A stretch of DNA of 48,019 bases, taken from IMG/VR virus record IMGVR_UViG_3300027976_000058. One strand, written 5' to 3'. This document shows, piece after piece, positions 19,245-48,019 of this stretch. How positions within the stretch are numbered: position 1 is the first letter of the stretch; each line of letters starts with the position of its first letter. The notes under the pieces were generated by a model. The model saw nothing but the letters and a program-made list of their open reading frames with translations, made no database searches and was not told the origin of the DNA. This DNA is from a virus. The translations under genes were made by a program, and so were the position numbers.

Positions 19245-19264
19245 AACTATTGAAGGAGTGATCC

Positions 19265-27415: not shown

Positions 27416-27838
27416 ATGGAATTTCAGACGTTTGTCCGTAAGCCTTTTGTTGTAGAGGCAATTGAAGTAACCGTTGAGAACATCAATGATATTTCTGAGT
27501 TCGTAGGCACTATGCGTACAAAGGATGACGGAACACCTTATATTCAAGTTGATCGTCGTCTCATCCCGAATGTTTTCCGAGTCTACCCAGGGTTCTGGAT
27601 GACTAAGATGGGTGACAACATTCGTTGTTATTCGGAAAGAATCTTTAACGAGCAGTTTATTGCAATAGAACCTGAAACACAGTCTTGGGTTGACTTCCTA
27701 AACAAAGAAGAGGATGAAAGTGTTCGCGAGGTCATTAAAATTCCTGGTGATGCACAGTTCGCAGTAGATGAAGAAGAGATTTTATACGTTAAGCTTGAGG
27801 CTATTGCGGAAAGTATTGCGGAGATTGTATCAGATTGA
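27416..27838 (+). CDS. hypothetical protein. Its C-terminal 24 aa duplicate the N-terminus of 28722..28958
   Basis: 140 aa with RBS AAGGAGAA. Confidence 0.65.
   Translation: MEFQTFVRKPFVVEAIEVTVENINDISEFVGTMRTKDDGTPYIQVDRRLIPNVFRVYPGFWMTKMGDNIRCYSERIFNEQFIAIEPETQSWVDFLNKEEDESVREVIKIPGDAQFAVDEEEILYVKLEAIAESIAEIVSD
27734..27806 (+). repeat. 73-bp direct repeat, copy A (partner 28734..28806, about 4 mismatches)
   Basis: attaaaattcctggtgatgcacagttcgcagtagatgaagaagagattttatacgttaagcttgaggctattg. Confidence 0.9.
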
Positions 27839-27945
27839 TAATAAGTTAGACGCAGGTAGTTAATATTTTAGGGCGCTAGAACCTATTGCGAGAGTTCTAC
27901 AGTCTGCGGAGAGTAACCCTATGACTCCCGGTCAGGCCGCCCAGT

Positions 27946-27974
27946 TCGCAATTAATACAATGCTTATAATGAGA
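27946..27974 (+). promoter_or_regulatory. 29-nt promoter-like element, copy 4
   Basis: tcgcaattaatacaatgcttataatgaga. Confidence 0.55.
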
Positions 27975-28114
27975 GAAGAGGTAAGATACGAAGGTGTATA
28001 AGAGAAAACTTATACCTACCTGGCGGCACCTGAAAAAGTGCTTAACGACTAGTTTTCGATAGGCTAGTAACCCACGCTTCTCTTTTTTTCTTTACCAACT
28101 AATTAGGAGAATAA

Positions 28115-28485: not shown

Positions 28486-28721
28486 CTCTTTTATATTTCC
28501 TCTGGCCCGGAGGAAAGTGACCTAGATCGCTCGCGTAACATAACCGGGTTTACATCTAATCGTCACACAAACTGATAACTGTCCCTTTTTTAGAGTGGCA
28601 GAAAAACAGTAAGGTAGTGCGGAAACCACTGCTGGGTACCTTTCGCTCCTGTGGGCGTCTCCCCGCCTGAGCACGCGGGATACAAACTGCTCCTATTCGC
28701 AAACAACTAATGGAGGAAATA

Positions 28722-28958
28722 ATGCGTAAGTTCATTAAAATTCGTGGTGATGCACAGTTCGCAGTAGATGCAGAAGAGATTTTATACGTTAGGATTGAGG
28801 CTATTGATTCAACAAAGCCATTGCCAAGGTATCACATTCATCTTAAGCTCCGTAATGGAGACGACTTCTATGGTCTTGACAGCTTTGCTGGAGAAGCCCA
28901 AAAAGAACTAAATAGTATTATTCAAGAGCTTGGTGAAGTTGTAGACCTAGATATATAA
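28722..28958 (+). CDS. hypothetical protein (78 aa)
   Basis: ATG 28722 follows TGGAGGAAATA. The track start at 28710 lies within the RBS. Confidence 0.55.
   Translation: MRKFIKIRGDAQFAVDAEEILYVRIEAIDSTKPLPRYHIHLKLRNGDDFYGLDSFAGEAQKELNSIIQELGEVVDLDI
28734..28806 (+). repeat. 73-bp direct repeat, copy B
   Basis: attaaaattcgtggtgatgcacagttcgcagtagatgcagaagagattttatacgttaggattgaggctattg. Confidence 0.9.
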
Positions 28959-28982: not shown

Positions 28983-29114
28983 ATGCTTAAATTATTTAAA
29001 TGCCGAAGTACTTACGGTGAAGACTTTAAATGTGAACGCTTTTTATTCCATCGTGGGCTTCATTACAAGAAGTCTTCTCGATACCCATATGTAAAACTCC
29101 GTTGGACTAGGTAA
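28983..29114 (+). CDS. small basic Cys/His-containing protein (43 aa)
   Basis: Translated by hand. RBS is TAGGAGTAATA. Sequence is MLKLFKCRSTYGEDFKCERFLFHRGLHYKKSSRYPYVKLRWTR. Confidence 0.4.
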   Translation: MLKLFKCRSTYGEDFKCERFLFHRGLHYKKSSRYPYVKLRWTR

Positions 29115-29117
29115 AAC

Positions 29118-29146
29118 TCGCAGAATTTACAACGCGTATAATGAGA
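29118..29146 (+). promoter_or_regulatory. 29-nt promoter-like element, copy 5
   Basis: tcgcagaatttacaacgcgtataatgaga. The 65 bp at 29116..29180 are identical to 31278..31342. Confidence 0.6.
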
Positions 29147-29173
29147 ACAAACCCACTAATCATTGGAGAAATT

Positions 29174-29428
29174 ATGAATGGCAACCTAATGAATGCTTTG
29201 GCAAAGAGCCCAACAAGTGGTAAAAGAGAGTTCGCAATCACAACAGTAGAATTAACATCCAAAGCCTTAATAGGCATCATGGCTGTTGAAGCCGTACTTG
29301 TTGCATGTGCGCGGGACTGGCTTTTATCATTAATGAGCGACAGCCCATATAATTCAATTTGGAATGAATCCACTACATTACTTAAAGATGTAATAGTAGA
29401 GTTTGATCAAAAACAAAACTGCGAGTAA
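29174..29428 (+). CDS. small membrane protein, cassette family A (84 aa)
   Basis: ATG follows TGGAGAA. The track start at 29141 is the ATG inside the promoter core. The C-terminus ..QKQNCE is shared with 29906..30148. Confidence 0.6.
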   Translation: MNGNLMNALAKSPTSGKREFAITTVELTSKALIGIMAVEAVLVACARDWLLSLMSDSPYNSIWNESTTLLKDVIVEFDQKQNCE

Positions 29429-29437
29429 AAACGCAAA

Positions 29438-29467
29438 GAAGGAGACCCACACGGGTTTCCTTTTTTT
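29438..29467 (+). terminator. intrinsic terminator (type 1: ggagaccc-acac-gggtttcc + T7)
   Basis: Direct reading. Confidence 0.75.
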
Positions 29468-29602
29468 GTCGTATAAGGATAACTACTAAGAATGTGTAAT
29501 GAAGACTTAAAGAGTAACATTCTGTAGGTGTTATACATGTTAAGATTAAATCCAATATATGGCACGACTTATATTTACCAACTAATTAAGGAGTAATAAA
29601 CA

Positions 29603-29848
29603 ATGCATCCTGGAATGAAGTGCAACGTATGTAATTTGGTTTGTACAGAAAACGAAAGAACTGAAGATGGTTATTATGCAGACCCATGTCTAGGTGTGCT
29701 CCCCGGAGTTATATTTGCTTGCTGTGGTCATGGGAAAAAAGATTACGGGTACGTGGCCTTTGAAAACGGAGCCACGATTAGATTTGATCTTATTATAAGT
29801 GAGTTTCAAAAGTTTTCCAAGCACAATAACTTCATAGGACGTGAGTGA
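29603..29848 (+). CDS. Cys-rich small protein (putative zinc-binding)
   Basis: 81 aa with RBS TAAGGAG. Contains CNVCNLVC..C..ACCGH. Confidence 0.55.
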   Translation: MHPGMKCNVCNLVCTENERTEDGYYADPCLGVLPGVIFACCGHGKKDYGYVAFENGATIRFDLIISEFQKFSKHNNFIGRE

Positions 29849-29849
29849 A

Positions 29850-29878
29850 TCGCAGAATTTACAACGCCTATAATGAGA
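29850..29878 (+). promoter_or_regulatory. 29-nt promoter-like element, copy 6
   Basis: tcgcagaatttacaacgcctataatgaga. Confidence 0.6.
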
Positions 29879-29905
29879 CAACTCACCTACCAAGGAGACT
29901 TAACC

Positions 29906-30148
29906 ATGAATGACAACCACATCAATACTATGACCGAGACCACCGAAGATGATACGAGTGAGTTTCCAACCACAGCAATGACATTAGTAGCTTGCGCCGT
30001 AATAGGCGCTACGCTTCCAACAGTCGCGCGCTTTGGATGGAACTATATTCGTACCGGATTTGAGAGCTTGCGTCCTAATAAAGATTTGGAAGCGGTTTAT
30101 TACATAAGTGAATCTGACGAAGATGAGAATAATCAAAACTGCGAGTAA
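29906..30148 (+). CDS. small membrane protein, cassette family A (80 aa)
   Basis: ATG follows CAAGGAGAC. The N-terminus MNDNHINTMTETTEDD resembles MNDNQVDTMTETTENG of 31336..31557. Confidence 0.6.
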   Translation: MNDNHINTMTETTEDDTSEFPTTAMTLVACAVIGATLPTVARFGWNYIRTGFESLRPNKDLEAVYYISESDEDENNQNCE

Positions 30149-30160
30149 AAACGCAAAGGA

Positions 30161-30187
30161 GGAGACCCCACAAGGGTCTCCTTTTTT
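30161..30187 (+). terminator. intrinsic terminator (perfect 8-bp stem ggagaccc/gggtctcc + T6)
   Basis: Direct reading. Confidence 0.8.
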
Positions 30188-30243
30188 GTCGTATAGGGAT
30201 ACTATTTATAATAAAACAACCAACTTCATAGGACGTAAGTAAA

Positions 30244-30272
30244 TCGTATATAATACAACGCTTATAATGAGA
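30244..30272 (+). promoter_or_regulatory. 29-nt promoter-like element, copy 7
   Basis: tcgtatataatacaacgcttataatgaga. Confidence 0.6.
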
Positions 30273-30289
30273 CAACTACTGGAGGAATT

Positions 30290-30506: not shown

Positions 30507-30762
30507 CATAAATGCCTTAGAAAGAGGACAAATGTTTCAGTTTATAAATGGACAATATGGTTATGTGGTAGAGCTTGGTGAGAAGTTTCCACCGTTGCCT
30601 GTCACTGGAGTTGGTGACGAGATTCCATTTGCGGCGGCTTTGACTAACTCGATTCAGAATGGAACAATCAAAGAGCCGGGTAAGTATTTTATTCACTTTA
30701 CGAATGATGATTTAACCTCATTGAACTATGAAGTTTCTCGTGTATATGAACGTGACCAATAA
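30490..30762 (+). CDS. hypothetical protein (90 aa; start uncertain, alternative ATG at 30532)
   Basis: Track ORF. The first ATG sits in the loop of the hairpin. Confidence 0.5.
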   Translation: MASSFFINALERGQMFQFINGQYGYVVELGEKFPPLPVTGVGDEIPFAAALTNSIQNGTIKEPGKYFIHFTNDDLTSLNYEVSRVYERDQ

Positions 30763-30764
30763 AA

Positions 30765-30793
30765 TCGCAGAATCTACAATGCCTATAATGAGA
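30765..30793 (+). promoter_or_regulatory. 29-nt promoter-like element, copy 8
   Basis: tcgcagaatctacaatgcctataatgaga. Confidence 0.6.
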
Positions 30794-30812
30794 CAACCTA
30801 TAAGGAGACATT

Positions 30813-31014: not shown

Positions 31015-31046
31015 GGAAGGAGCCTAACATGGCTTCTTCTTTTTTT
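31015..31046 (+). terminator. intrinsic terminator (type 2)
   Basis: ggaaggagcc-taacat-ggcttcttc followed by a T-run. Confidence 0.7.
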
Positions 31047-31048
31047 AA

Positions 31049-31077
31049 TCGCAGATAATACAACGTCTATAATGAGC
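31049..31077 (+). promoter_or_regulatory. 29-nt promoter-like element, copy 9
   Basis: tcgcagataatacaacgtctataatgagc. Confidence 0.55.
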
Positions 31078-31094
31078 CTACCAAGGAGACATAA

Positions 31095-31229: not shown

Positions 31230-31238
31230 AGCTTTAAA

Positions 31239-31267
31239 GAAGGAGACCCACACGGGTTTCCTTTTTT
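31239..31267 (+). terminator. intrinsic terminator (type 1)
   Basis: gaaggagaccc-acac-gggtttcc + T6. Confidence 0.75.
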
Positions 31268-31279
31268 GTCTTGATTTAC

Positions 31280-31308
31280 TCGCAGAATTTACAACGCGTA
31301 TAATGAGA
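31280..31308 (+). promoter_or_regulatory. 29-nt promoter-like element, copy 10
   Basis: tcgcagaatttacaacgcgtataatgaga. Confidence 0.6.
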
Positions 31309-31335
31309 ACAAACCCACTAATCATTGGAGAAATT

Positions 31336-31557
31336 ATGAATGACAACCAAGTTGATACTATGACCGAGACCACAGAAAATGGTACAAAAGAGGTCGCAAT
31401 CACAGCGGCGACATTTGCAGCAGGCGCATTAATATTCGTCGTGCTTAAAAGAGTCGTACGGTATGTGAGGCGAGACTCTATTACACCATTAATGTGGAGC
31501 CGGCAATTTAACCCAGTTTGGCAAGAATCCACTAAAGTAATTCAAGATATGGATTGA
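31336..31557 (+). CDS. small membrane protein, cassette family A (73 aa)
   Basis: ATG follows TGGAGAA and is in frame with track ORF 31219..31557, whose 5' part runs through the terminator and promoter. Confidence 0.6.
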   Translation: MNDNQVDTMTETTENGTKEVAITAATFAAGALIFVVLKRVVRYVRRDSITPLMWSRQFNPVWQESTKVIQDMD

Positions 31558-31570
31558 AAACTCGTAGAAG

Positions 31571-31599
31571 GAGGGGACCCCACAAGGGTCTCCTTTTTT
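31571..31599 (+). terminator. intrinsic terminator
   Basis: gaggggaccc-cacaa-gggtctcc + T6. Confidence 0.75.
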
Positions 31600-31611
31600 G
31601 TCTTGATTTAC

Positions 31612-31640
31612 TCGCAGAATTTACAACGCCTATAATGAGA
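31612..31640 (+). promoter_or_regulatory. 29-nt promoter-like element, copy 11
   Basis: tcgcagaatttacaacgcctataatgaga. Confidence 0.6.
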
Positions 31641-31659
31641 CTACCAACAAGGAGTAATC

Positions 31660-31827: not shown

Positions 31828-31836
31828 GAGTTAAAA

Positions 31837-31866
31837 GAAGGAGACCCACACGGGTTTCCTTTTTTT
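31837..31866 (+). terminator. intrinsic terminator (type 1)
   Basis: gaaggagaccc-acac-gggtttcc + T7. Confidence 0.75.
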
Positions 31867-31878
31867 GTCTTGATTTAG

Positions 31879-31907
31879 TCGCATATTATACAATGCTTAT
31901 AATGAGA
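31879..31907 (+). promoter_or_regulatory. 29-nt promoter-like element, copy 12
   Basis: tcgcatattatacaatgcttataatgaga. Confidence 0.6.
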
Positions 31908-31924
31908 CCAATAAGGAGCAAATA

Positions 31925-32093: not shown

Positions 32094-32125
32094 ACCGAGG
32101 CCCTACACAAGGGCTTAGGTTTTTT
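32094..32125 (+). terminator. intrinsic terminator (type 3: accgaggccc-tacacaa-gggcttaggt + T-run)
   Basis: Direct reading. The same element recurs 300 bp downstream. Confidence 0.7.
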
Positions 32126-32137
32126 GACCCGTATACG

Positions 32138-32166
32138 TTGCATACTATAAAATACCTTTAATGAGA
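32138..32166 (+). promoter_or_regulatory. 29-nt promoter-like element, copy 13 (degenerate; TATAAT replaced by TTTAAT)
   Basis: ttgcatactataaaatacctttaatgaga aligns position-for-position with the consensus. Confidence 0.35.
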
Positions 32167-32189
32167 CAACTACCTACCAAGGAGTAATT

Positions 32190-32393: not shown

Positions 32394-32427
32394 ACCGAGG
32401 CCCTACACAAGGGCTTAGGTTTTTTTT
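32394..32427 (+). terminator. intrinsic terminator (type 3)
   Basis: Same hairpin as 32094..32125, followed by T8. Confidence 0.7.
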
Positions 32428-34824: not shown

Positions 34825-34833
34825 CGTATACTC

Positions 34834-34862
34834 TCGTTAAGAATACAACGCTTATAATAGAG
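34834..34862 (+). promoter_or_regulatory. 29-nt promoter-like element, copy 14 (variant ...TATAATAGAG)
   Basis: tcgttaagaatacaacgcttataatagag. Confidence 0.5.
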
Positions 34863-34911
34863 AGACTCTGGATATGCAAACGCATTTCTTTACTTTTTCA
34901 ATTGGAGGGAC

Positions 34912-35232
34912 ATGCAAGAAAGTAAATATCAGAACGACATCATAGTACGTCTTGGTAGGCTTCTACCTGGATGTTTTGTTATTAAGAATGATCCGTCTTA
35001 TATACAAGGGATTCCAGATCTTCTTATTTTGTTTGAGGATAAGTGGGCAATGCTTGAGGTTAAGTGCTCCGCTGATGCTCAAACTCAACCAAATCAACCG
35101 TACTATATCGAATGGTTTAATAGACTGTCTTTTGCGGCATTCATATACCCAGAAAACGAGGAGAATGTTTTAAATGCTCTTCAACAAACATTCAGAGTTG
35201 CAAGGCAAGCACGCCTTTTTGAGCCCGAGTAG
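34912..35232 (+). CDS. VRR-NUC/PD-(D/E)XK-type nuclease
   Basis: 106 aa. GIPDLLILFEDKWAMLEVK fits a D...E-x-K nuclease core. Confidence 0.55.
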   Translation: MQESKYQNDIIVRLGRLLPGCFVIKNDPSYIQGIPDLLILFEDKWAMLEVKCSADAQTQPNQPYYIEWFNRLSFAAFIYPENEENVLNALQQTFRVARQARLFEPE

Positions 35233-35734
35233 TAACAGTTGGTTAAATTATGACGACCAAAAGCTAAAGCTTAGATTTCAATCTGCTCAAGCTTCTCGTA
35301 GAGGAACTGATTTACACGACTTAGCTCATGAAGCAATTCGACTAGGCGTCAAGCTAGCAAAAAGTAATCAGGCGTTATCAACATACGTTAATGACGCTAT
35401 TAGCTACAAGATGTTTTGTGAGCAACTTTTATATTTCTCTGAAAACTGTTTTGGCAGCGCAGATACAATTTCTTTTAGAAGAAACAAACTACGAATCCAT
35501 GATCTAAAAACTGGAATTATAGCCGCCAAAGAAAAACAGTTGGAAGTGTATGCTGCATTATTCTGTTTAGAATATAGCATATCTCCGTATGATATTGACA
35601 CCGAATTAAGGATCTATCAAAGAGATGAGATTCGAGTATACGAGGCGATTCCTGAATCTATTGACACAATCATGGAAACAATTGTCCGTCACGATGCACG
35701 ACTCAGAGAAATTAGAAACGATGATAACCTATAA
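35174..35734 (+). CDS. PD-(D/E)XK (Cas4/DUF2800-like) nuclease
   Basis: 186 aa. Contains HAFLSPSSNSWLNY, GTDLHD and GSADT...IHDLKTG. Overlaps the upstream gene by 59 nt. Confidence 0.5.
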   Translation: MLFNKHSELQGKHAFLSPSSNSWLNYDDQKLKLRFQSAQASRRGTDLHDLAHEAIRLGVKLAKSNQALSTYVNDAISYKMFCEQLLYFSENCFGSADTISFRRNKLRIHDLKTGIIAAKEKQLEVYAALFCLEYSISPYDIDTELRIYQRDEIRVYEAIPESIDTIMETIVRHDARLREIRNDDNL

Positions 35735-35755: not shown

Positions 35756-38437
35756 ATGGAATTAGAAACAACGGAATATTTAGTACACTATGGAATTATC
35801 CGTCGATCAGGAAGGTATCCTTGGGGATCTGGTGGTAATAACGAAGGAAGCACCTATGTTACCGAGAATAATAGAACTTTCTTAGATTACGTAAAGTCGT
35901 TGTTTAAAAAAGGTATGACTGAGTCCCAAATTGCAGAGGGATTCGGAATGTCAACAACTCAATTACGGGCAGCCCGTACCTTGGCTAAGTCCGAGCAAAG
36001 AGCGTCTGATATTTCTATGATTGAGCGTCTAAAAGAAAAGGGAATGTCAAACACCGCTATTGGCGAGCGCATTGGCATGCCTGAGGCTACAGTTCGATCA
36101 CTACTTAAACCCTCAGCTAAGCTTAGTAGTGACTCTATTCAGTTATCTGTGGATGCTCTTAAAGCACAAGTCGATGAGAAAGGTTACCTCGATGTTGGTG
36201 TAGGCACTGAGAACTTACTTAACATCAGTAAAGAACGACTTAATGTCTCCCTAGAAATTCTTCGTGCTGATGGATATCAAGTGTACTCTAACATTAAAGC
36301 ACCACGTCTAAATACCGCATTCGACACAAGGCTTAAGGTACTTACAACTCCAGACAAGACCTTTATTGATGTTATTAAAAATAAAGATAAGATTTCACAG
36401 GTCAACGAAAGACTTAACGATACCGGCGAAACATTGCTTGGTATCGAAAAACCTTTAGCACTCAACTTAAAGAGAGTTGATATTGTCTATGGGCCTGACG
36501 GTGGAGCTCTAAATGATGGTGTAATGTATGTCCGTCCTGGAGTAGACGACGTTAATCTTGGAGGGTCAAGTTATGCACAAGTAAGAATTCAGGTTGGTGC
36601 TGGACACTACATAAAGGGTATGGCTATCTATAAGGATGGGCTTCCTGATGGTGTAGATGTACAGTTTAACACTAACAAAAAGGATACAGGAAATAAGCTT
36701 GATTCACTAAAGGAACTTACCCGAGATGACAAAGGTGCCGTAGACAAAGACAACCCGTTTGGCACGGTGATCAGTAGACAGATTGGTACAGAGCTTCCTA
36801 ATGGGAGGGTAAAGGTTACGTCAGTAGTAAACATTGTGAATGAAGCGGGTGATTGGTCTAACTGGTCCGACACTATAGCATCCCAGGTTCTGTCTAAGCA
36901 GCCACCAAAGCTTGCTAAAGAACAACTGGATATGACGTATGAGGCTCGTAAGAACCAGCTTGATGAGATAATGACATTGACTAACCCTACTGTAAAAAGG
37001 AAGATGCTTGAAGACTTTGCTTCAGATGTTGATGCAGCAGCCGTACATCTAAAGGCATCTAAGCTTCCTAGGCAGTCATGGCACGCCATCCTTCCAGTTA
37101 ACAGCTTGAAAGACACAGAGATCTATGCACCTAACTACAATGATGGCGAACGAGTTGCGTTGATTCGTTATCCACATGGTGGAACGTTTGAGATCCCTGA
37201 GCTTACAGTAAACAATAAGAACCGTGAAGCCAAGAAGTACCTAGATAATGCGCGAGATGCCGTTGGTATTAATTCAAAGGTAGCTGAGCGCCTGTCTGGT
37301 GCCGACTTTGATGGTGACACAGTACTTGTAGTGCCAAATAATTCAGGTAAGCTTAAGTCAACGCCAGCGTTGGAAGGCCTAAAAAACTTTAATCCTCGCG
37401 AACAGTATCGAGGATTCAAAGGCATGCCAGTAATGAAAAACACGGGAGCCGAAATGGGTAGCATATCCAATCTAATAACCGACATGACTATCGCTGGTGC
37501 ATCTAGGGATGAGTTAGTTAGAGCGGTACGTCATTCAATGGTTGTTATTGATGCTGAAAAGCATGCGCTGAACTACAAAGAATCAGCTAAGGTTAACGCT
37601 ATCAAGCAGCTTAAAGCTAAGTACCAGCCTACAGGTGGATCATCCACTATCATCTCAAGGGCCCAGAGTCCAAGGTATCAAGAGAAGATGAAGGCTCGCC
37701 CAATGTCTGAAGGTGGGCCAATCAATAAAAAGACTGGTGAGCTTGAGTTTGTACCATCAGGCCAAACTAACTATAAGACTGGGCAGCCTAAGCAAGAGAG
37801 GAAGGCGCTCCTTGAAGTAACCCGAGACGCACGGGAGATCACGTCTGGTAAAGACCGACGCATAGAAAATCTCTATGCCGACCACTCTAACAGACTTAAG
37901 AGTATGGCCAACGCGGCTAGGCTGGAGGCAATTAATACCCCCCGTTCAAACTGGTCACCCTCTGCCAAGAAGACATACTCAAAGGAAGTTAAGGAACTTA
38001 ACTCAGCCTTGGCCCTGGCTAAGTCCAACGCCCCTCGCGAGAGGCGTGCTCAAAACATTGCTGAGGCAACATACAAAGCTAAGTTAGAATCAAGCGTAGA
38101 AATGCAAACTAACATAGCACTTCAGAAGAAGGTAAAGCATCAAGCTCTTGCTGCAGCACGCAATAGAACTGGTGCTTCTAAAGAAAAAATTGTGATCACG
38201 GCAAAGCACTGGGAAGCTATTCAAGCTGGTGCTATCAGTGACAGTAACCTTAAGCAGATACTTACTAATTCTGATATGGATTCTGTTAAAGAGTTTGCTA
38301 GACCGAAGTCATCGAAGACAATGACATCAAGTAAGACCCGCCGAGCCGAGGCTATGCTAGCACAAGGTTACACTCGTGCTGACATTTCTAAGCAGTTGGG
38401 AGTACCACTTGGTACTCTCGATGAGGCACTCTACTAG
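35756..38437 (+). CDS. candidate single-subunit two-barrel RNA polymerase (YonO / crAss gp66 / RDR-like) with two N-terminal and one C-terminal HTH modules
   Basis: 893 aa. ERVALIRYPHGGTFEIPEL...DAVGINSKVAERLSGADFDGDTVLVVPN (DFDGD codons 37304..37318) mirrors beta-prime VLLNRAPTLHRLGIQAF...NADFDGDQMAVH. The HTH-like segments are GMTESQIAEGFGMSTTQLRAARTL, GMSNTAIGERIGMPEATVRSLL and GYTRADISKQLGVPLGTLDEAL. Confidence 0.55.
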   Translation: MELETTEYLVHYGIIRRSGRYPWGSGGNNEGSTYVTENNRTFLDYVKSLFKKGMTESQIAEGFGMSTTQLRAARTLAKSEQRASDISMIERLKEKGMSNTAIGERIGMPEATVRSLLKPSAKLSSDSIQLSVDALKAQVDEKGYLDVGVGTENLLNISKERLNVSLEILRADGYQVYSNIKAPRLNTAFDTRLKVLTTPDKTFIDVIKNKDKISQVNERLNDTGETLLGIEKPLALNLKRVDIVYGPDGGALNDGVMYVRPGVDDVNLGGSSYAQVRIQVGAGHYIKGMAIYKDGLPDGVDVQFNTNKKDTGNKLDSLKELTRDDKGAVDKDNPFGTVISRQIGTELPNGRVKVTSVVNIVNEAGDWSNWSDTIASQVLSKQPPKLAKEQLDMTYEARKNQLDEIMTLTNPTVKRKMLEDFASDVDAAAVHLKASKLPRQSWHAILPVNSLKDTEIYAPNYNDGERVALIRYPHGGTFEIPELTVNNKNREAKKYLDNARDAVGINSKVAERLSGADFDGDTVLVVPNNSGKLKSTPALEGLKNFNPREQYRGFKGMPVMKNTGAEMGSISNLITDMTIAGASRDELVRAVRHSMVVIDAEKHALNYKESAKVNAIKQLKAKYQPTGGSSTIISRAQSPRYQEKMKARPMSEGGPINKKTGELEFVPSGQTNYKTGQPKQERKALLEVTRDAREITSGKDRRIENLYADHSNRLKSMANAARLEAINTPRSNWSPSAKKTYSKEVKELNSALALAKSNAPRERRAQNIAEATYKAKLESSVEMQTNIALQKKVKHQALAAARNRTGASKEKIVITAKHWEAIQAGAISDSNLKQILTNSDMDSVKEFARPKSSKTMTSSKTRRAEAMLAQGYTRADISKQLGVPLGTLDEALY

Positions 38438-38456: not shown

Positions 38457-38711
38457 ATGACACTAAGATTAGCAATGCTTTCTACTATTGACAATCCTTA
38501 CAATCCTTTTGATGAGTACCGTCGGTGGTATGAGTTTGACACTAGAGCAGGTTACCATACTGCCTCTTTCCTAGCTAGGATCACCTTCAACTCATATGAA
38601 ATGTCTGAAGCTGATCAAGCTCTTGCGGTTGAGCAAGCAGTTGATGAAGCAGTATTTGAAAACCTCCCAGGTAATTATATAAAAATTTTACGAGAGGTAG
38701 ATGAAGATTAA
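38457..38711 (+). CDS. hypothetical protein
   Basis: 84-aa ORF with RBS GAAAGGAAAG. Confidence 0.55.
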   Translation: MTLRLAMLSTIDNPYNPFDEYRRWYEFDTRAGYHTASFLARITFNSYEMSEADQALAVEQAVDEAVFENLPGNYIKILREVDED

Positions 38712-38714
38712 AGC

Positions 38715-38790
38715 TGTGGCGGAATGGGCAAGGGGGGGGAGGGGGGCCTCGCAAGATCACCCCCCCCTCTGCATCGCCCTCCTCTCTATA
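38715..38790 (+). other. G8-A-G6 ... C8 GC-rich stem-loop / G-quadruplex-capable element
   Basis: gggcaaggggggggaggggggcctcgcaagatcacccccccctct sits in an otherwise AT-rich intergenic region. Confidence 0.6.
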
Positions 38791-38953: not shown

Positions 38954-39385
38954 ATGGACGAATATAACGAATCAATCATGGTTGCAATGCTCCCAACAAC
39001 CAATGATTGGTGTAAAATTGAGCTTCCACACACTACTTTGGTGTATGCGGGCGAAATAAAGGACAGTTCCGTAACAGAGTTCAATAAGATGGCAAAAGAA
39101 GTTTCCGATTTAGCGGTTCTAAGCCGTCCTTTGGCCATTGATACCTTTGGCATTGAGGTTTTTGGTAACGAAGAAAAAGTCGACGTTATCAGATTACTGG
39201 CAACCCCAGAGCTTATGGCTATTCGGAATACTTTAGTTAAATATGACGTAAGTGAACACCCATTCCACCCACACGTAACTGTCGGGCCGGTTGGTTCTGC
39301 AAATTACCCAATACCAACAAGACTATTCTTTGATCGATTCTTAATTAAGTACGGTCAAGAATCGATGGTATTCAATCTACGATAA
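38954..39385 (+). CDS. 2H phosphoesterase superfamily protein (LigT / Acb1-like)
   Basis: 143 aa with two H-x-T motifs, LPHTTLVY (H26) and HPHVTVGP (H107). RBS is TTGGAGAC. Confidence 0.6.
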   Translation: MDEYNESIMVAMLPTTNDWCKIELPHTTLVYAGEIKDSSVTEFNKMAKEVSDLAVLSRPLAIDTFGIEVFGNEEKVDVIRLLATPELMAIRNTLVKYDVSEHPFHPHVTVGPVGSANYPIPTRLFFDRFLIKYGQESMVFNLR

Positions 39386-41708: not shown

Positions 41709-42029
41709 ATGAACAACCAACTTGTTGTACACAAGAATCGCACAAACATTGTTCCAGTTAGCCTTGGTATAGATTTGTCTGCTGACACAATTACTAGTGA
41801 GATTCGAGTTAGCGAAGATCCAACCTCAACTCTCATTGCCACATGGGCAGTAACATTCAACACTGACGGAACTGACGGTAAGGTTGTCTTAACTTTGCCC
41901 GTAGCTGATGTGGAAAATATTACTAGGACCACGGGGTTTATGGACTTAAAAAGAGTTAGTGGGGGAGAGCCTCTCTCAGTATTTCGCGAGCCACTGGAAG
42001 TAGTATTCCAAGGAGTTGTAACAGCATGA
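41709..42029 (+). CDS. hypothetical structural protein (Ig-like?)
   Basis: 106 aa with RBS TAGGAGGTAGAT. Overlaps the fibre gene by 4 nt. Confidence 0.5.
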   Translation: MNNQLVVHKNRTNIVPVSLGIDLSADTITSEIRVSEDPTSTLIATWAVTFNTDGTDGKVVLTLPVADVENITRTTGFMDLKRVSGGEPLSVFREPLEVVFQGVVTA

Positions 42030-44281
42030 GTACTTTCTTTGATAATACTGAAACTCCAAAAATTGTTGTCGGAACTCAGACGATTGTTGTCGATCCAGCA
42101 ACTGGTTCTACACATATGCTTGGTTCTGGCCTTGTAGGGCCGCGTGGGTTTTCGGGTGATGTAGGAACCGGCAGTGGTACTAGCGACCATGGCGCACTTA
42201 CTGGTAGAAACGACGACGATCACACGCAGTATCATACCGATGCTCGTGGTGACGCTCGCTACTCTCTGGTGGAACATGCCCATCCCGAGTACGCAGACTT
42301 TATCTACTCGTTTGGATTTCACGATGATCTTGCTCCAGCAGGAGGGGTCTACAATATTGATGAGACGATTACACTGAACTTTATGGCGGACTTTGGTATT
42401 TCCCCGTCAACGACTCTGAAAATCCTTGTTGATGGGTCACCAAATTCCAGTTACGACAAGGGCTACATCTACACGACAACGGCCAATCCGGTTGATGACA
42501 CATGGATTATAGTCCCTATTAACACTCCATTCAGCTTTACCAATGTTGGAAAGATTGTTAGCATAGGCTTCGACTTTGGCATCCAAGACGCTATACTCGG
42601 CATGGTTATCTATAACGGATCTTTCAGCATTAAAAATGTTTCCTGGGCAACAAATGATACTGGCGATTACCAAATCGACGTGCGTGAGTCGGCGCAAGAA
42701 TACCTCCGTGCCGATTGGGAGGAGCGAACTGCCCCGCTAATGACGACAAATCCGACGCCTGCAGTCACTTCTAGTGACTATTCAGCAGCATGGAACATCA
42801 CCGATGGGTCCTCTCGTGGAACGCTTCGACATATGCCGAATGGTATTGACATCCAGTGGTTCGGCAAAGTCAAGCGCCCGTGGACAGACCAAGAACTTGT
42901 CGACGCCGGGCAACCGGATACCGTTTGGCCGTTCCAAAGGTTCTACGAACTGTTCACACTAACAAGACCCAGCATCCAAAACGATTGGTGGGAATGGGCT
43001 CGCCACAACAACGATTTCTCTAACACCGGTGGGCGGGCCTCCTACTTCTTGGAAAACACCCTTCCTGGATCACCAGCAGAAGAATCGCACAGCATCAGCT
43101 GGGACACTGGAGTTGAGGTTGGGCAACCCGAGCGTGCTCGACTGACACTAGACACACTAAATTCCACGGTCACGCTTTGGAATTGGGTACCTTATGATAA
43201 CGACGATCCATCGCTTGACCAATGTCCTCGTGGCCTGTGGTGGAAGCCAGTGTTCAGTGACATCGACGATGCGTGGGGTGCTATGCCAAACCCAGAAGTA
43301 GAGTTTGTTCCAGCTAGCCCAGCAATGGGATATACCGAGGGTGACCCAGAAGTTATCATTCCATGGCACATTGGAATCCAAGCATCCCTTGAGATTGCAG
43401 AGTTTTTTGTCTATGAGTTTGGTAACACCACTCCAGAACTCCAGATCGATGGCGACTGCCTTGCCGCCGTGGGCGAAGGTGCAACTACATTCCTCGACAG
43501 CACTGGGGTTTTCACTGTTGCAACTACCAATGCGTACATAATCAAAGGTCCAGCCTCTCACTACGAACCTGCTGATGGTGCTGATGGTGCTGATGGTGCT
43601 GACGGTGCTGTTGGTGCTGACGGTGCTGATGGTGCTGATGGTGCTGTTGGTGCTGATGGTGCTGATGGTGCTGACGGTGCTGTTGGTGCTGACGGTGCTG
43701 TTGGTGCGCCTGTATACACAAAAGCGCTTCCGACATCAGAGTTGGCGTACTCAAACCTCGGCGCTTCTCATGGAAACAGCAGCACCTTAAGCGGAATGAC
43801 AGCTATAAATCGTAGAGTCTGGGTTCCAATTTATGTTCGTAGCGACTCCTTCACACGCATAAGCGTCAACGTAGTCACCGGAGCGGTGTCGACGTGGCAA
43901 TTGGGACTCCACGCGGATGACGGCGGGTGGCCTGCGTCAGAACTTATCTCCGACTACGGAACTATCGATATGAGTGGAGCGGCAGGGTTCCGAACTATCA
44001 ACATCAGCGAAGTTCTCGCTACTGGTTGGTACTGGGCACAGATGCAAGTAAATGCCTACACGTCGACACCAACCGTGACCGGAGTGTTGGCTCAGTCAAA
44101 TAGCCCTGCCCAAATGCCCCTTGGTATCCCGACTCAACGCTCTAGTTTTAATCGAGGAACCGCTGCAGTTGGAGATACGGCAGGAACTGGTAGTGCATTG
44201 ACTGTTGCTCCCAATAGCCTTGCTGTTGCTGGGGTTGGGTTAAACGCTGAAGCTCCAAGAGTGTGGTTATGGAGGCCATAA
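42026..44281 (+). CDS. tail fibre protein with collagen-like Gly-X-Y segments
   Basis: 751 aa. Contains GLVGPRGFSGDVGTGSG and a 45-residue (GAD)n/(GAV) run at 43571..43706. Confidence 0.75.
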   Translation: MSTFFDNTETPKIVVGTQTIVVDPATGSTHMLGSGLVGPRGFSGDVGTGSGTSDHGALTGRNDDDHTQYHTDARGDARYSLVEHAHPEYADFIYSFGFHDDLAPAGGVYNIDETITLNFMADFGISPSTTLKILVDGSPNSSYDKGYIYTTTANPVDDTWIIVPINTPFSFTNVGKIVSIGFDFGIQDAILGMVIYNGSFSIKNVSWATNDTGDYQIDVRESAQEYLRADWEERTAPLMTTNPTPAVTSSDYSAAWNITDGSSRGTLRHMPNGIDIQWFGKVKRPWTDQELVDAGQPDTVWPFQRFYELFTLTRPSIQNDWWEWARHNNDFSNTGGRASYFLENTLPGSPAEESHSISWDTGVEVGQPERARLTLDTLNSTVTLWNWVPYDNDDPSLDQCPRGLWWKPVFSDIDDAWGAMPNPEVEFVPASPAMGYTEGDPEVIIPWHIGIQASLEIAEFFVYEFGNTTPELQIDGDCLAAVGEGATTFLDSTGVFTVATTNAYIIKGPASHYEPADGADGADGADGAVGADGADGADGAVGADGADGADGAVGADGAVGAPVYTKALPTSELAYSNLGASHGNSSTLSGMTAINRRVWVPIYVRSDSFTRISVNVVTGAVSTWQLGLHADDGGWPASELISDYGTIDMSGAAGFRTINISEVLATGWYWAQMQVNAYTSTPTVTGVLAQSNSPAQMPLGIPTQRSSFNRGTAAVGDTAGTGSALTVAPNSLAVAGVGLNAEAPRVWLWRP
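43571..43706 (+). repeat. 9-bp (ggtgctgay/ggtgctgtt) tandem array encoding GAD/GAV collagen-like triplets
   Basis: Direct reading. Confidence 0.9.
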
Positions 44282-44310: not shown

Positions 44311-44727
44311 ATGCCAATTCCACCAGATGACGTAGATGTTGGTGATGGCTTTCATGTAAACCATCACCGAGACTTTTCTACAGTCCTACAAGGACACAGA
44401 GATAGGATTAGTATTTCTGAAAGTACATTAACCAGCCACGAGCCAAGGATTACGGCAGTTGAATCATTAGCTAACAGCCTTAATACCCAGTCTGGTAATA
44501 ATATTGTAAATGCATATCTTCATGTTGATGGGACAACATTAGTTCTTGTACAAAAAAACGGGACTGAAATACCGTTTCCAAATACTGCGGGTGCTGATGG
44601 TGCTGATGGTGCTGATGGTGCTGATGGTGCTGTTGGGATAGATGGAGATGGAATTGTGTTTCTAGACGCGGCAGAATCTTCGGCCGGTCTTCCCGACGGA
44701 ACAAAGATTTGTAGGCGATATCCATGA
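44311..44727 (+). CDS. tail fibre-associated protein with collagen-like repeat
   Basis: 138 aa with RBS TAGGAGAAAG. Contains GADGADGADGADGAVGIDGDG. Confidence 0.6.
   Translation: MPIPPDDVDVGDGFHVNHHRDFSTVLQGHRDRISISESTLTSHEPRITAVESLANSLNTQSGNNIVNAYLHVDGTTLVLVQKNGTEIPFPNTAGADGADGADGADGAVGIDGDGIVFLDAAESSAGLPDGTKICRRYP
44590..44655 (+). repeat. second GAD collagen-like 9-bp array, same DNA unit as 43571..43706
   Basis: Direct reading. Confidence 0.9.
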
Positions 44728-46658
44728 CAAAACTTCTTGGACTTCACCCAGAAGGTGGGTCTGATGGGTTGGTATTTCTTTACCCAGGATCATCTCTTTC
44801 AAGATGTCCAAATCCGGTAGAAGGATATCAAACTAATCCGACGGTTAATGGTTTTATTGGTTCAACAAAAGTAATCCTTGGAAGTAACCCTCGGGGCTAT
44901 CCCGCAAAGAGAAACCCAATGCATCGTGGAATGTTCTACAACGACTATATTGGTAGGGCTGTTTCTGCAAGAAATTATTGGAAGCTTGGTTCATTTCCAA
45001 ATGCCAGCCGGGCCATGCCGATCGACACATATTCGTGTCGCTTTTATCACACTCCAAGAAATAACGATCTTACTGCGTTTACAGGTAATGATTCTTTCCC
45101 ACACCTAATTACCTTTATGTTGGCTAATGGCATGGACTACATTAACAATAGCACAACTGATCGTTTTAGCATGATGCTAAGTAATGTAACAACGGATGGG
45201 GTTTACAATTTTCGAGATCGTCCATTTGTAAAGCATAACACCAACACTACATTATTTAGCATTGCGCCAGTTGGAAAACAAATGAACGCCATTAAAACTT
45301 GGAGAGTTCAAATCCAAGTTAAACCAACAGCATCTCCCTATAAAGTAGTAATTAAAATCTGGGAACTTGACAATATCGGCACACCATGGTACACTATGGA
45401 ATGTAATCCAACAAATGTATCCATGAATACAATCATGCTTGGTAGGCATACTGGAAAGTGTGGTGCTGGCTATTTAACAGATCAGTGGATCGGCGATCTT
45501 GAGATTTGGGACACCTACAATCTTGATGGACAAGCAGATCTACCATATGATCCACCAAAACCCAAATTCTTTGAGATTGTTAATGGGATTGAAGAACCAG
45601 TAATTGAAGAAGGAATAATGTCTGGGGGATCTGTCAATACGGTTGATAAAGAAAATTGGACTGAGGGTGTAAACAATCGAGAGTATGTTTACGATGCATC
45701 CAACTTTGTCTATGTTAATCAAATTTTCTATGATAATCCAAGTCGCTCCGCCAGAGTTGGTTCTCTATGGTATCCATCAAGAACGGCTCCACCAGATGGT
45801 TGGAAGACTATCATTCTTGTCCATGGTGGGTTCTTCTCAGCAGGAACAAGACATTTTGTTGGGCAAGAAAATCCATTGTGGATGATTAAATGGTTGTTAA
45901 AACTTGGTTATGCGGTCTTTAGTGTGGATTACATTTATGCGTGGTATTTATCTCTATATGACATCGCAAAGCCTGCATGGCCCGAACAAGGATCTGGTCT
46001 TTATCCAAGCTTTATTGTTGACATAAAACTTGCCCTTCTTTGGCTTGAAGAACAGTCAACATATCCTTTAGATGGCGTAAATAAAATGGTCTGTGGACAC
46101 TCGGCAGGTTCTTACCTAGCTCATGCTGCAGCTATTAGTCGAGATTTGAATAATCATGAAGGAAAAGATTTAACTGTTAATAGCAGTTGGGGTTATCGAA
46201 CGGCCACAGCTGACCCGTCTGTTCTTGGAGTGTACGGGTGGGCAACGCCAACCGACATGCAATGGGCTTATGACAATGATATTACGCACCCTGAGTTTGG
46301 GCCTAAGTATGACTACAATAAAGGCGCTTTAAAAGTCACAGCCAATCTTTTCTTTGGAAAAGATTATTCATACAATCTAACTAGCGCAGATTCAATTGGT
46401 TCAAGTCTTGCTGAAATGGTTTTGGTACAAGATCTAGCAAAGATTCCTCCAGTTGGTCTTGCTCACGGTAGGTTTGATGGGGTTGTTTCTCCTGAGCATA
46501 TATCTCTATATAAGGATGCGTTAAATATACGCCTTACTAATGGGTATGATGTTGGCAATAGTATTTTAACAAATAGAGATCATGATACGCCGTTTACCCA
46601 CATGCCTGAGCAACACTTCAAAAACTTCTTAGAATCTATTGGTATGCCTGGTGGTTGA
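44724..46658 (+). CDS. tail-module protein with a C-terminal alpha/beta-hydrolase (esterase/lipase) domain
   Basis: 644 aa. Oxyanion-hole-type VHGGFFSAG (about 45819) and nucleophile elbow GHSAGS (46095..46109). Confidence 0.6.
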   Translation: MTKLLGLHPEGGSDGLVFLYPGSSLSRCPNPVEGYQTNPTVNGFIGSTKVILGSNPRGYPAKRNPMHRGMFYNDYIGRAVSARNYWKLGSFPNASRAMPIDTYSCRFYHTPRNNDLTAFTGNDSFPHLITFMLANGMDYINNSTTDRFSMMLSNVTTDGVYNFRDRPFVKHNTNTTLFSIAPVGKQMNAIKTWRVQIQVKPTASPYKVVIKIWELDNIGTPWYTMECNPTNVSMNTIMLGRHTGKCGAGYLTDQWIGDLEIWDTYNLDGQADLPYDPPKPKFFEIVNGIEEPVIEEGIMSGGSVNTVDKENWTEGVNNREYVYDASNFVYVNQIFYDNPSRSARVGSLWYPSRTAPPDGWKTIILVHGGFFSAGTRHFVGQENPLWMIKWLLKLGYAVFSVDYIYAWYLSLYDIAKPAWPEQGSGLYPSFIVDIKLALLWLEEQSTYPLDGVNKMVCGHSAGSYLAHAAAISRDLNNHEGKDLTVNSSWGYRTATADPSVLGVYGWATPTDMQWAYDNDITHPEFGPKYDYNKGALKVTANLFFGKDYSYNLTSADSIGSSLAEMVLVQDLAKIPPVGLAHGRFDGVVSPEHISLYKDALNIRLTNGYDVGNSILTNRDHDTPFTHMPEQHFKNFLESIGMPGG

Positions 46659-47803: not shown

Positions 47804-48019
47804 ATGCCAGAAACTAGTAAACCAAAAATCGATAACTTTCTTGAGCATTATGGTATAAAAGGACAGCGGTGGGGTGTTCGTCGAAAAAGCGGATCGTCCG
47901 GCAGTAGTTCTTCTGGAAAAGATAATAAGAAAGGCGAATCGTCCGGCAGTAGTTCTTCTGGAAAAGATAATAAGAAAGGCGAATCGTCCGGCAGTAGTTC
48001 TTCTGGAAAAGATAATAAG
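47804..48019 (+). CDS. 5' part of the wrap-around repeat protein (continues at base 1, or at base 124 if the ends overlap)
   Basis: ATG follows TAGGAGGTAAA. Sequence is MPETSKPKIDNFLEHYGIKGQRWGVRRKSGS followed by SGSSSSGKDNKKGES repeats. There is no stop before the window end. Confidence 0.6.
   Translation, partial: MPETSKPKIDNFLEHYGIKGQRWGVRRKSGSSGSSSSGKDNKKGESSGSSSSGKDNKKGESSGSSSSGKDNK
47897..48019 (+). repeat. 45-bp tandem repeat, 2.7 copies, identical to 1..123
   Basis: Direct comparison of the two window ends. Confidence 0.95.

Follow-up and report, generated by a model that had tools for sequence, protein, structure and literature searches.

The polymerase gene and its predicted fold

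The window analyzed here, the whole 48,019-nucleotide stretch of the virus record IMGVR_UViG_3300027976_000058 from IMG/VR, carries on its plus strand an open reading frame (ORF) at positions 35756–38437 that starts with ATG and encodes a protein of 893 amino acids (aa). The protein belongs to PHROG 4291 and is predicted to be a two-barrel polymerase with helix-turn-helix (HTH) modules at its termini. The initial annotation, made from the sequence alone, had singled out this ORF on account of two motif stretches. Both of them, ERVALIRYPHGGTFEIPELTV (residues 465–485) and DAVGINSKVAERLSGADFDGDTVLVVPN (residues 501–528), were found in the 893-aa product on the plus strand; the spacer between them is 15 aa long (NNKNREAKKYLDNAR) and not 21 aa as had been indicated. 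All parts of the gene described below lie on the same strand.

The DFDGD metal-binding loop with its three aspartates (D517, D519, and D521; residues 517–521, positions 37304–37318) is invariant among 76 aligned metagenomic homologues sharing 54–64% overall identity with the window protein. It is located in the second beta-barrel, which resembles the double-psi beta-barrel A (DPBB-A) of the beta' subunit of RNA polymerase (RNAP) and occupies residues ~441–530 (positions 37076–37345); this barrel has six strands in the structural model and also contains the IRYPHGG motif (positions 37163–37183). The invariant residues of the catalytic barrel are R471, P473, H474, G476, and S514-G-A-D-F-D-G-D521, all eight residues of SGADFDGD (514–521) being unchanged across the 76 homologues. 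The L-I-R471-Y-P473-H-G-G stretch is invariant as well, so the basic residue and the proline corresponding to NRxP of beta' (R446 and P448 of Rpb1) are retained. The first beta-barrel region, similar to DPBB-B of the beta subunit (residues ~241–365, positions 36476–36850), is marked by the strand pattern in the model and by the invariant residues D254-G255, Q275, R277, and K287-G-M-A290. Judging from the alignment, the conservation of the catalytic and first-barrel residues is far above chance. A list of eight universal residues of two-barrel polymerases was given by Ruprich-Robert and Thuriaux (PMC2919709).

The model built on the 76-sequence alignment using the AlphaFold2 program has a mean predicted local distance difference test (pLDDT) score of 81.4 and a predicted template modelling (pTM) score of 0.67, only residues 1–38 being disordered. 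The model contains a six-strand module at residues 441–527 that holds both RxP and DFDGD, a beta-rich module at residues 241–365, and long helices that come after the catalytic barrel. According to the Foldseek comparison with the PDB, the top matches were QDE-1 (E-value 6.6e-11) and gp62 of the Thermus phage P74-26 (3.6e-8), together with maize RDR2 (1.8e-6) and Arabidopsis RDR2 (2.4e-4), with a probability of 1.0 for each of them; dozens of Rpb1 and beta' chains followed with weaker E-values, from 5e-3 to 3e-2. The alignments to two-barrel enzymes span ~500–950 columns and their TM-scores are low (~0.3), presumably because the relative arrangement of domains either differs or is mis-modelled. 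In the BFVD database, the best named matches were gp64 of the phage P23-45 (E-value 1e-7), proteins annotated as RNA-dependent RNA polymerase (RdRP), and, more weakly, crAss-like proteins.

Searches of the PDB sequences with the whole protein and with the 76-sequence profile gave weak HTH or spurious matches and no polymerase; thus, the core is visible by fold only. Analysis in the hhalign program set GERVALIRYP...SGADFDGDTVLVVPN on GERVIFNRRP...TGADYDGDIGYVFP of gp64, with ADYDGD under the catalytic loop, at a probability of 1.8% for this single-sequence template. The first-barrel motifs LNDGVMYVRPGVDDVNLGGSSYAQVRIQVGAGHYIKGMAI resemble FSDGIGKIS...AFQIRYGGYKGV of RDR2 by eye only; in the first-barrel sequence of Arabidopsis RDR2 taken from the PDB (FSDGIGKISLAFAKQVAQKCGLSHVPSAFQIRYGGYKGVIAVD), the shared D, G, Q, R, K, and G are those that are invariant in the family. 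As for the acidic residue and the two basic residues that a beta-like barrel should contribute (compare D837, K979, and K987 of Rpb2), D254, R277, and K287 are invariant and RDR2-like by eye, and alignment tests were non-significant. The assignment of the first barrel is based on the fold match and conservation and not on sequence statistics. In addition, the DPBB-A region weakly matches phrog_8308 (847 positions, function unknown; E-value 2.4e-7), which may be the YonO family.

The fold comparison bears out the two-barrel polymerase identity suggested earlier from the sequence, since the model matches QDE-1, P74-26 gp62, and RDR2, and both (R/K)xP and DbDGD are invariant. The parallel that had been drawn with the catalytic barrel of the RDR enzymes and of beta' holds too: SGADFDGD and RxP are kept, and the fold is closest to QDE-1/RDR and to the non-virion RNAP of Thermus phages. 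According to the model, the protein is a single-chain polymerase of the two-double-psi-beta-barrel superfamily with the architecture of the cellular RNAP active centre.

The core is flanked by three putative DNA-binding units. HTH module 1 (residues ~39–70, positions 35870–35965) comprises model helices 39–51, 56–62, and 67–94 and shows a weak HTH_7 match at residues 43–70. HTH module 2 (residues ~85–121, positions 36008–36118; model helices 99–106 and 110–117) is matched by HTH_23 and Xre-like-HTH above their cut-offs and by Sigma70_r4_2 narrowly under its own. Over the N-terminal pair, HTH_23 scores 31.5 bits against a Pfam cut-off of 24.6 in two stretches (residues 43–70 and 88–118), Xre-like-HTH scores 26.6 bits against 25.8, and Sigma70_r4_2 falls just under its cut-off (25.5 bits against 25.7). 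In the homologue of the Lactococcus phage P092, Sigma70_r3 (E-value 1.9e-5, module 1) and r4_2 (5.5e-5) match both N-terminal units, and in the correct order; the scores of many other HTH families on this pair equal or exceed those of the sigma models. When the N-terminal module was modelled alone (pLDDT 78), comparison with the PDB gave nothing below an E-value of 0.17, and the match list mixed IstA, NarL/DosR, ECF sigma-4, and Tc3. The two tandem N-terminal HTH segments noticed in the initial annotation are therefore supported by Pfam matches above threshold and by the model, while the affinity to sigma region 4 or LuxR ascribed to them is not, the matches being those of generic HTH domains. 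In short, the tandem HTH is established and its sigma-like nature is not.

HTH module 3 lies at the C-terminus (residues ~858–892, GYTRADISKQLGVPLGTL; positions 38327–38431), where the model has helices 858–869, 874–881, and 885–892. Profile matches to it are sub-threshold (HTH_23 with an E-value of 0.017 in the window protein and 2.3e-5 in the P092 homologue; HTH_24 with 3.5e-4 in the homologue of the Arthrobacter phage Mudcat), and the C-terminal profile matches a designed HTH repeat (E-value 1.9e-5). The third HTH read from the sequence alone is thus recovered: it recurs in the Mudcat and P092 homologues and forms a clean three-helix unit, as the model does at each of the three HTH places. 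In front of module 1, an N-terminal peptide (residues 1–38, positions 35756–35869; conserved residues H11, G13, and S18-G-R-Y-P-W-G-S25) has a pLDDT below 50. Its sequence, YLxHYGIxRRSGRYPWGSG, is nearly invariant family-wide, yet it is predicted to be disordered and is missing from the portal-fused relatives described below; the peptide might be a docking or targeting signal.

A search of the PHROGs database gave a full-length match to phrog_4291, named "RNA-dependent RNA polymerase" (E-value 0, 1160 bits), residues 3–892 aligning with positions 6–905 of 909. Using tblastn, homologues were detected in 250 deposited phage genomes, all below 60% identity; the hosts were Arthrobacter (95), Gordonia (55), Streptomyces (54), and Lactococcus (13), and further Curtobacterium, Rhodococcus, Microbacterium, and Faecalibacterium. 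A word-indexed homologue search returned at least 8000 matches. When 1.84 billion representatives of 50% identity clusters were searched exhaustively, 1982 clusters passed E ≤ 1e-3 and 811 passed 1e-30; among the 150 best clusters, almost every one has a protein of 870–1000 aa matching end to end. The identity of the window protein reaches 52% at most with homologues from cultured phages and 64% with the nearest metagenomic one.

The labels of these proteins in GenBank vary from "RNA-dependent RNA polymerase" and "HTH DNA-binding domain protein" to hypothetical. Koert et al. (bioRxiv 10.1101/842583) named the gene for this protein as a signature of an actinophage "supercluster" and of Lactococcus and Faecalibacterium phages; with a family alignment, their HHpred analysis linked the protein to the Pfam RdRP family PF05183 (95.7%), and they recorded the DxDGD loop and HTHs at both ends. 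The same authors proposed an RNA polymerase activity, with promoters and transcription unmentioned, and noted the cross-phylum spread and low GC content of the phage group. Earlier, a YonO-like protein of Lactococcus phage 1706 was placed among the YonO-like families (PMC2919709). The supplements of the paper on P23-45 (PMC10770324) do not mention phages of the PHROG 4291 group. The family is therefore already known from bioinformatics (PHROG 4291; Koert et al.), and the window protein is a new member of it. Both labels, "RNA-dependent RNA polymerase" and "HTH DNA-binding protein", are probably misleading.

Promoter-like elements upstream of the polymerase gene

The window contains 12 near-identical plus-strand copies of the sequence TCGCAgaatTACAAYGCnTATAATGAGA, against 0.32 expected by chance, in agreement with the stereotyped promoter-like element that the initial annotation had pointed to. 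In its general form, tTCGCA-N5-TACA-N5-TATAAT-G(A/G)GA, the element is ~30 bp long. Three copies are located at positions 17592–17629 (hexamer TATAAT at 17616), 18079–18116 (hexamer at 18103), and 19211–19248 (19235), the last of them 5' of the replication gene block. Nine more are found at 27941–27978 (27965), 29113–29150 (29137), 29845–29882 (29869), 30239–30276 (30263), 30760–30797 (30784), 31044–31081 (31068), 31275–31312 (31299), 31607–31644 (31631), and 31874–31911 (31898). In addition, a degenerate copy (GTTGCATACTATAAAATACCTTTAATGAGA) precedes the helicase block (32133–32170, plus strand), and a variant of a separate operon class (TCGTTAAGAATACAACGCTTATAAT-AGAGAG; 34829–34866, plus strand) precedes the operon of endonuclease, exonuclease, and polymerase genes.

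Near-identical terminator-like sequences consisting of a hairpin and a T-run (GGAGACCCACACGGGTTTCCTTTTTT, AGGCCCTACACAAGGGCTT) occur in the small-gene region, and such sequences were located at positions 29404–29481, 30124–30201, 31235–31268, 31567–31599, 31832–31867, 32098–32116, and 32398–32416. Several of them stand directly 5' of elements, the third, fourth, and fifth being followed by the copies at 31275, 31607, and 31874, respectively, which indicates one-gene transcription units.

A weight matrix was built from the window copies and related copies and used to scan 86 polymerase loci (0.93 Mb). It gave 150 matches on the gene strand against 2 on the opposite one, and 64 of the 86 loci were positive. 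All matches lie 5' of the polymerase, with none within the gene or up to 13 kb downstream of it. One copy is located 840–1113 nucleotides (nt) before the polymerase start in 49 of the 79 loci with sufficient upstream sequence; this operon copy usually reads TATAAT-AGAAGG and persists where the multi-copy class is sparse. Seven copies (TCGCGtAAAtTACAnGGGCTATAATgaga) were found in Mudcat, whose host belongs to Actinobacteria, and nine (TTTTACAyACCCTATAATGArAG) in P092, which infects a member of Firmicutes. Across 16 genomes, the universal positions are TCG(C/T)A, TACA, TATAAT, and the next G, with centres ~10 bp apart; by sequence, the three boxes would thus lie one helical turn from each other. 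Within a genome, the 5-nt spacer is conserved only slightly better than it agrees between genomes.

The arrangement is unlike that of sigma-70 promoters: the end of TCGCA lies 14 nt ahead of the hexamer and TTTACA only 5 nt ahead of it, and a TG is lacking. The annotated host promoters in sk1, a Lactococcus phage sharing its host species with P092, score −18 to −53 bits on the matrix, and 113 kb of control sequence from the phages sk1 and L5 and from part of P23-45 contained no element match. The window shows no enrichment of sigma-70-type matches (35 against 30.2 and 9 against 11.8), and they are depleted in the structural half, at 1–20 kb (22 against 39.3 ± 6.3 in shuffles). A strict 18-base pattern of the element was present in at least 119 IMG/VR stretches, and 56 of the 80 fetched ones hold signature genes of the group in their short flanks. 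The phages in which the element and the polymerase gene occur together infect Actinobacteria, Firmicutes, and uncultured hosts. As far as the sequences indicate, the element is characteristic of the phage group that has this polymerase as its signature DNA-binding protein.

A leaderless mRNA starting from the ATG in TATAATG was also considered and rejected: in only 27 of 99 cases does this frame stay open over 40 codons or more, which is about the chance level and no better than the other usable frame.

Portal-fused relatives and the genome setting

Two proteins of 1789 and 1809 aa, encoded on contigs from different samples (L211:1866–7235 and L212:229–5658), carry the polymerase core in their C-terminal part. 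The 1789-aa fusion (P0180) is 48% identical to residues 107–847 of the window protein, with every motif intact, and its N-terminal part matches Phage_portal (E-value 2.9e-29); no portal match was obtained for the 1809-aa fusion (P0154). Both are devoid of the conserved N-terminal peptide and of all three HTH modules. The fusion genes sit in head-assembly modules of GC-rich contigs (0.69–0.71), the order in the longer fusion contig being a 533-aa gene, portal::polymerase, a small gene, prohead protease, and capsid. The element matrix gave no matches on the two contigs, which consist mostly of structural genes, where none are expected. Judging from the gene fusion, the polymerase of this lineage is almost certainly incorporated in the capsid. 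Virion polymerases are known in N4, crAss-like phages, and P23-45. Such a fusion of the core agrees better with a transcriptase that enters together with the DNA than with a replication enzyme. On one of these contigs, a prohead protease/peptidoglycan-binding protein (L211:7919–10117) shows a faint match to the LigT/2H-phosphoesterase superfamily.

The polymerase gene of the window is the third gene of an operon that starts with a VRR-NUC-type endonuclease gene (34912–35232, plus strand; phrog_93), which occurs in the same order in Mudcat and P092. The second gene (35174–35734, plus strand) encodes a Cas4-like exonuclease of the PD-(D/E)XK/DUF2800 type (phrog_3953, E-value 2e-73; DUF2800). The polymerase gene is followed by a small conserved gene of 84 aa (38457–38711, plus strand; phrog_4303, without a Pfam match), which trails it in the cultured and metagenomic relatives examined and whose product might serve as a cofactor or be associated with cos. 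Mudcat and P092 have the identical gene order (endonuclease, exonuclease, polymerase, small gene), and there it closes the genome. Directly after the small gene lies a cos-like block, GGGGGGGGAGGGGGGCCTCGCAAGATCACCCCCCCCTCTGCATCGCC, which was also found in 16 distinct related contigs (20 fetched loci). The corresponding genome-end element of the window (38732–38790, plus strand) consists of a G-run, TCGCAAG, a C-run, and CTCTGCATCGCC. The Mudcat and P092 records terminate on the right with exactly this block; hence, the genome of the window phage can be taken to end physically at ~38.78 kb, and the polymerase gene is the penultimate gene at the right genome end, as in the cultured relatives. 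The loop of the cos hairpin, TCGCAAA, resembles box 1 of the promoter-like element (TCGCAgaa), which may reflect a shared binding site or a coincidence.

The window is a circularized assembly, bases 1–123 being 100% identical to bases 47897–48019; this terminal overlap contains a 45-bp direct repeat (1–123 against 46–168, 80% identical). The phage is a siphovirus with every gene on one strand. The left part encodes, in order, terminase, portal, a protease-capsid fusion, two major tail paralogues, tape measure, and minor tail proteins. The middle part has small genes, a fusion of D5 helicase and DNA polymerase, SSB, further small genes, SF2 helicase, and an HNH endonuclease; the right part consists of the four genes described above. 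The 1253-aa replication protein (22995–26756) combines a D5-type helicase (DUF5906, Pox_D5) with the DNA polymerase.

The statement of the initial annotation that neither a T7-like RNAP nor a sigma factor is present agrees with a scan of 37 ORFs, in which none was recognized; the scan took in a few small ORFs and all those of 125 aa or more, apart from the 1597-aa tape-measure candidate and the ORF at 8792–9487. No primase domain was recognized in the same 37 ORFs, and the annotations of Mudcat and P092 list none over the stretch examined, from the tail genes up to the right genome end. No tRNA or Rfam families were found in the window.

Several other features of the window were recorded. The first gene after cos (38954–39385) is LigT/2H-phosphoesterase-like (2_5_RNA_ligase2, E-value 7.3e-6; LigT_PEase, 1.8e-5). 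The major tail paralogues (6450–7328 and 7913–8782) both belong to phrog_2645, and a pair of DUF6353 paralogues is located at 18469–19212 and 20817–21689. Nine-base tandem repeats (GGTGCTGAT/GGTGCTGTT) encoding collagen-like Gly-Ala-Asp/Val are present at 43543–43734 and 44565–44666, in a tail-fibre-like gene (42026–44281) and in the gene next to it; the 644-aa protein encoded after these repeat genes (44724–46658) has a BD-FAE esterase domain. Duplicated stretches with 62–87% identity (27712–27806 against 28712–28806; 29116–29281 against 29848–30013 and 31278–31443) include promoter-plus-gene cassettes, and the small early genes look like paralogous families.

Possible role of the polymerase and comparison with known systems

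Taken together, the findings make it somewhat probable, at slightly better than even confidence, that the protein is a phage DNA-dependent RNA polymerase that reads the stereotyped elements via its fused HTH modules. Promoter reading through these modules, which we infer from the sequences, is plausible and is strengthened by the comparative evidence. The HTH modules would dock the polymerase on the upstream boxes along one face of the helix, the AT-rich TATAAT would be melted, and the RNA would begin at or just after the conserved G. The polymerase would drive the short early/middle units (17.6–19.2 kb and 27.9–32 kb) and its own endonuclease-exonuclease-polymerase operon. With the cos ends joined, read-through of this operon could reach the structural genes, which have neither elements nor enriched sigma-70 sites. 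The first polymerase molecules might come from weak reading of the operon copy by host RNAP or might be carried in the virion. The broader proposal, in which the polymerase and the 30-bp element would constitute a self-contained, host-independent, and sigma-free transcription system with a portable promoter, is possible, and we advance it tentatively.

Several points weigh against the promoter-reading polymerase. The parallel of the first barrel with RDR2 has no sequence support: hhalign aligned an unrelated stretch, and the Smith-Waterman score was 27 against a shuffle mean of 29. The Pfam family PF05183 (RdRP) was not matched even at E ≤ 1, no RNA polymerase domain was found in Pfam, and PF05183 is present in 0 of 120 homologues according to precomputed Pfam annotation; hence, the link to the eukaryotic-type RdRP is one of remote homology and not of membership. 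Literature searches found no biochemical or genetic study of any family member. The perfect TATAAT followed by GAGA resembles a sigma-A −10 box plus discriminator, so the host holoenzyme, alone or with a phage activator, could read the element. As the same type of element precedes the polymerase operon, a polymerase-specific promoter would need a bootstrap. Comparison of the promoter boxes with the HTH recognition-helix sequences in 15 genomes revealed no clear co-variation, and the portal fusions devoid of HTHs show that the core can exist without these modules. YonO, the stand-alone relative studied best, uses one late promoter and not many early ones (PMC5467207).

The main alternative is a different division of labour, which we consider rather unlikely: host RNAP, with or without a small phage activator on TCGCA/TACA, would read the elements, and the two-barrel enzyme, a middle protein resembling YonO, would transcribe only the late block, from 38.5 kb through cos to ~17.3 kb, using a different candidate start. 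The late genes of SPbeta do form one operon transcribed from a single start beside the YonO gene (PMC5467207), and in the window the polymerase gene stands directly 5' of a ~27-kb late block without elements. The hexamer as a perfect sigma-A −10 with a GAGA discriminator-like sequence and the hairpin-T terminators of the host-RNAP type flanking the small units would also fit, as would the element before the polymerase operon, which is expected if the host enzyme makes the polymerase. However, TCGCA and TACA are conserved across phyla, with no −35 box at 16–18 nt and no TG, which makes reading by an unaided host sigma unlikely, and the sk1 promoters from the host species of P092 contrast with the element. 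A search for a conserved late promoter 3' of the polymerase gene led to the cos site as the conserved non-coding block of that region, and no small activator common to the group was identified.

It is improbable that the protein is a replication enzyme that makes RNA primers or an origin transcript and is directed by its HTHs to the origin or the genome end. RNA polymerases prime replication in T7, M13, and mitochondria, and enzymes of the QDE-1 type copy single-stranded DNA without promoters. Such a role would agree with the position of the gene in the replication/recombination block, in one operon with the VRR-NUC endonuclease and the Cas4-like exonuclease, with the likeness of the cos hairpin loop to box 1, and with the lack of a recognized primase in the scanned window ORFs or an annotated one in the examined parts of Mudcat and P092; the last is weak evidence, many ORFs being unannotated. 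The portal-fused homologues in head-assembly modules are hard to square with a primase, the characterized phage two-barrel enzymes are transcriptases, and the family-wide element would be unrelated to the protein.

An RdRP copying phage or host transcripts into double-stranded RNA (dsRNA), for which we know of no role in tailed phages, is highly improbable. The closest solved structures are QDE-1 and RDR2, and the annotation stems from the HHpred match to PF05183 (Koert et al., 10.1101/842583); the name is nevertheless a homology label and not a tested activity. Three HTH modules of the double-stranded DNA type in a double-stranded DNA phage argue for a DNA template, the characterized phage members of the superfamily are all DNA-dependent, and QDE-1 itself, according to PMC9508822, also uses DNA. 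Equally doubtful is a mere transcription factor with a dead core whose HTHs activate or repress host RNAP at the elements: routine Pfam searches see just the HTH domains, many SEA-PHAGES records read "HTH DNA-binding protein", and the element looks like a −10 promoter with activator boxes at about −30 and −20, recalling the layout of T4 MotA-type middle promoters, but the aspartates, RxP, and the first-barrel D/Q/R/K are invariant in the 76 homologues and kept in the portal fusion at 48% identity, and strong conservation of ~700 core residues is unexpected for a dead domain.

To our knowledge, characterized two-barrel RNAPs either need separate factors (sigma, TFB/TBP, or phage proteins of the gp68/gp226 type) or, as in YonO, have undefined recognition. 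If the window protein is indeed a DNA-dependent polymerase that finds the elements through its HTH modules, a two-barrel polymerase with a defined and fused mechanism of promoter recognition would be known for the first time, and the protein would provide the simplest model yet for start-site finding by this ancient polymerase fold. A portable promoter of its own would explain how the group crosses phyla with genomes 20–30% lower in GC than those of the hosts, and in some lineages the virion would bring in the same core fused to the portal protein. As an orthogonal expression tool, the enzyme would be a candidate on a par with T7 RNA polymerase. The family is large (~2000 representative clusters at 50% identity, ~250 cultured phages), and several cultured members are easily grown, on SEA-PHAGES hosts (Arthrobacter, Gordonia, and Streptomyces) or as dairy Lactococcus phages, which makes the hypothesis directly testable. 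Its interest lies in the combination of an uncharacterized large family with a concrete promoter hypothesis, and the link to the element is worth pursuing.

Among cultured phages, the same family is represented by gp94 of Arthrobacter phage Mudcat, gp75 of Lactococcus phage P092, a protein of Rhodococcus phage ReqiPoco6, the "putative RNA polymerase" of Faecalibacterium phage FP_oengus, and, according to the literature, a protein of Lactococcus phage 1706. The cultured homologues share with the window protein 37–52% full-length identity, the same length, HTHs at both ends, DxDGD, the gene order, and the element. Compared with Mudcat and P092, the window phage has ~9.5 kb of lysis and tail-fibre genes between cos and terminase. 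QDE-1 and RDR2 are likewise single chains with a beta-like barrel before the beta'-like one and a DbDGD loop and, by eye, the first-barrel pattern xxDGxGxI ... QxR ... KG(V/M). In contrast, their identity to the window protein is ~11–12% with a TM-score of ~0.3, and these eukaryotic enzymes have no HTHs, serve RNA silencing, and copy RNA.

The phage proteins P23-45 gp64 and P74-26 gp62 (PDB 8F5M) are non-virion single-chain RNA polymerases with their own conserved promoter motif; the gene for gp64 is a pre-early one, and its transcription is carried out by a second polymerase, the virion one fused to the tape measure (PMC10770324). The window protein resembles gp64 in structure, in the residue-by-residue alignment of DPBB-A, and in being a phage-encoded single chain. 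It differs in that gp64 has ~616 aa, no HTH modules, and GC-rich promoters, with no detectable sequence similarity beyond the catalytic loop. YonO of SPbeta is a stand-alone two-barrel chain of ~100 kDa, DNA-dependent and processive, which adjoins the late block that it transcribes (PMC5467207). By description, it is similar to the window protein as a stand-alone phage two-barrel chain adjoining late genes, and different in that no HTH modules are reported, one start is known, and the promoter is undefined. The gp66 protein of phi14:2, which is a crAss-like phage, and gp96 of P23-45, a fusion with the tape measure, belong to the same superfamily but are parts of very large structural proteins, whereas the window polymerase is a stand-alone 893-aa product of the replication block, with no indication of packaging. 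The portal-fused homologues suggest that some family members are also carried in the virion.

With T7-type RNAP, the analogy is functional: one polypeptide, a long stereotyped phage promoter, and many short units bounded by terminators. The T7 promoter has an AT-rich TATA followed by a purine-rich start, GGGAGA, and the window element has GAGA; the folds are unrelated, that of T7 RNAP being right-hand and PolA-like and not two-barrel. The precedent within the same fold is provided by YonO, gp64 and gp96 of P23-45, and gp66 of phi14:2, all of which are DNA-dependent phage transcriptases.

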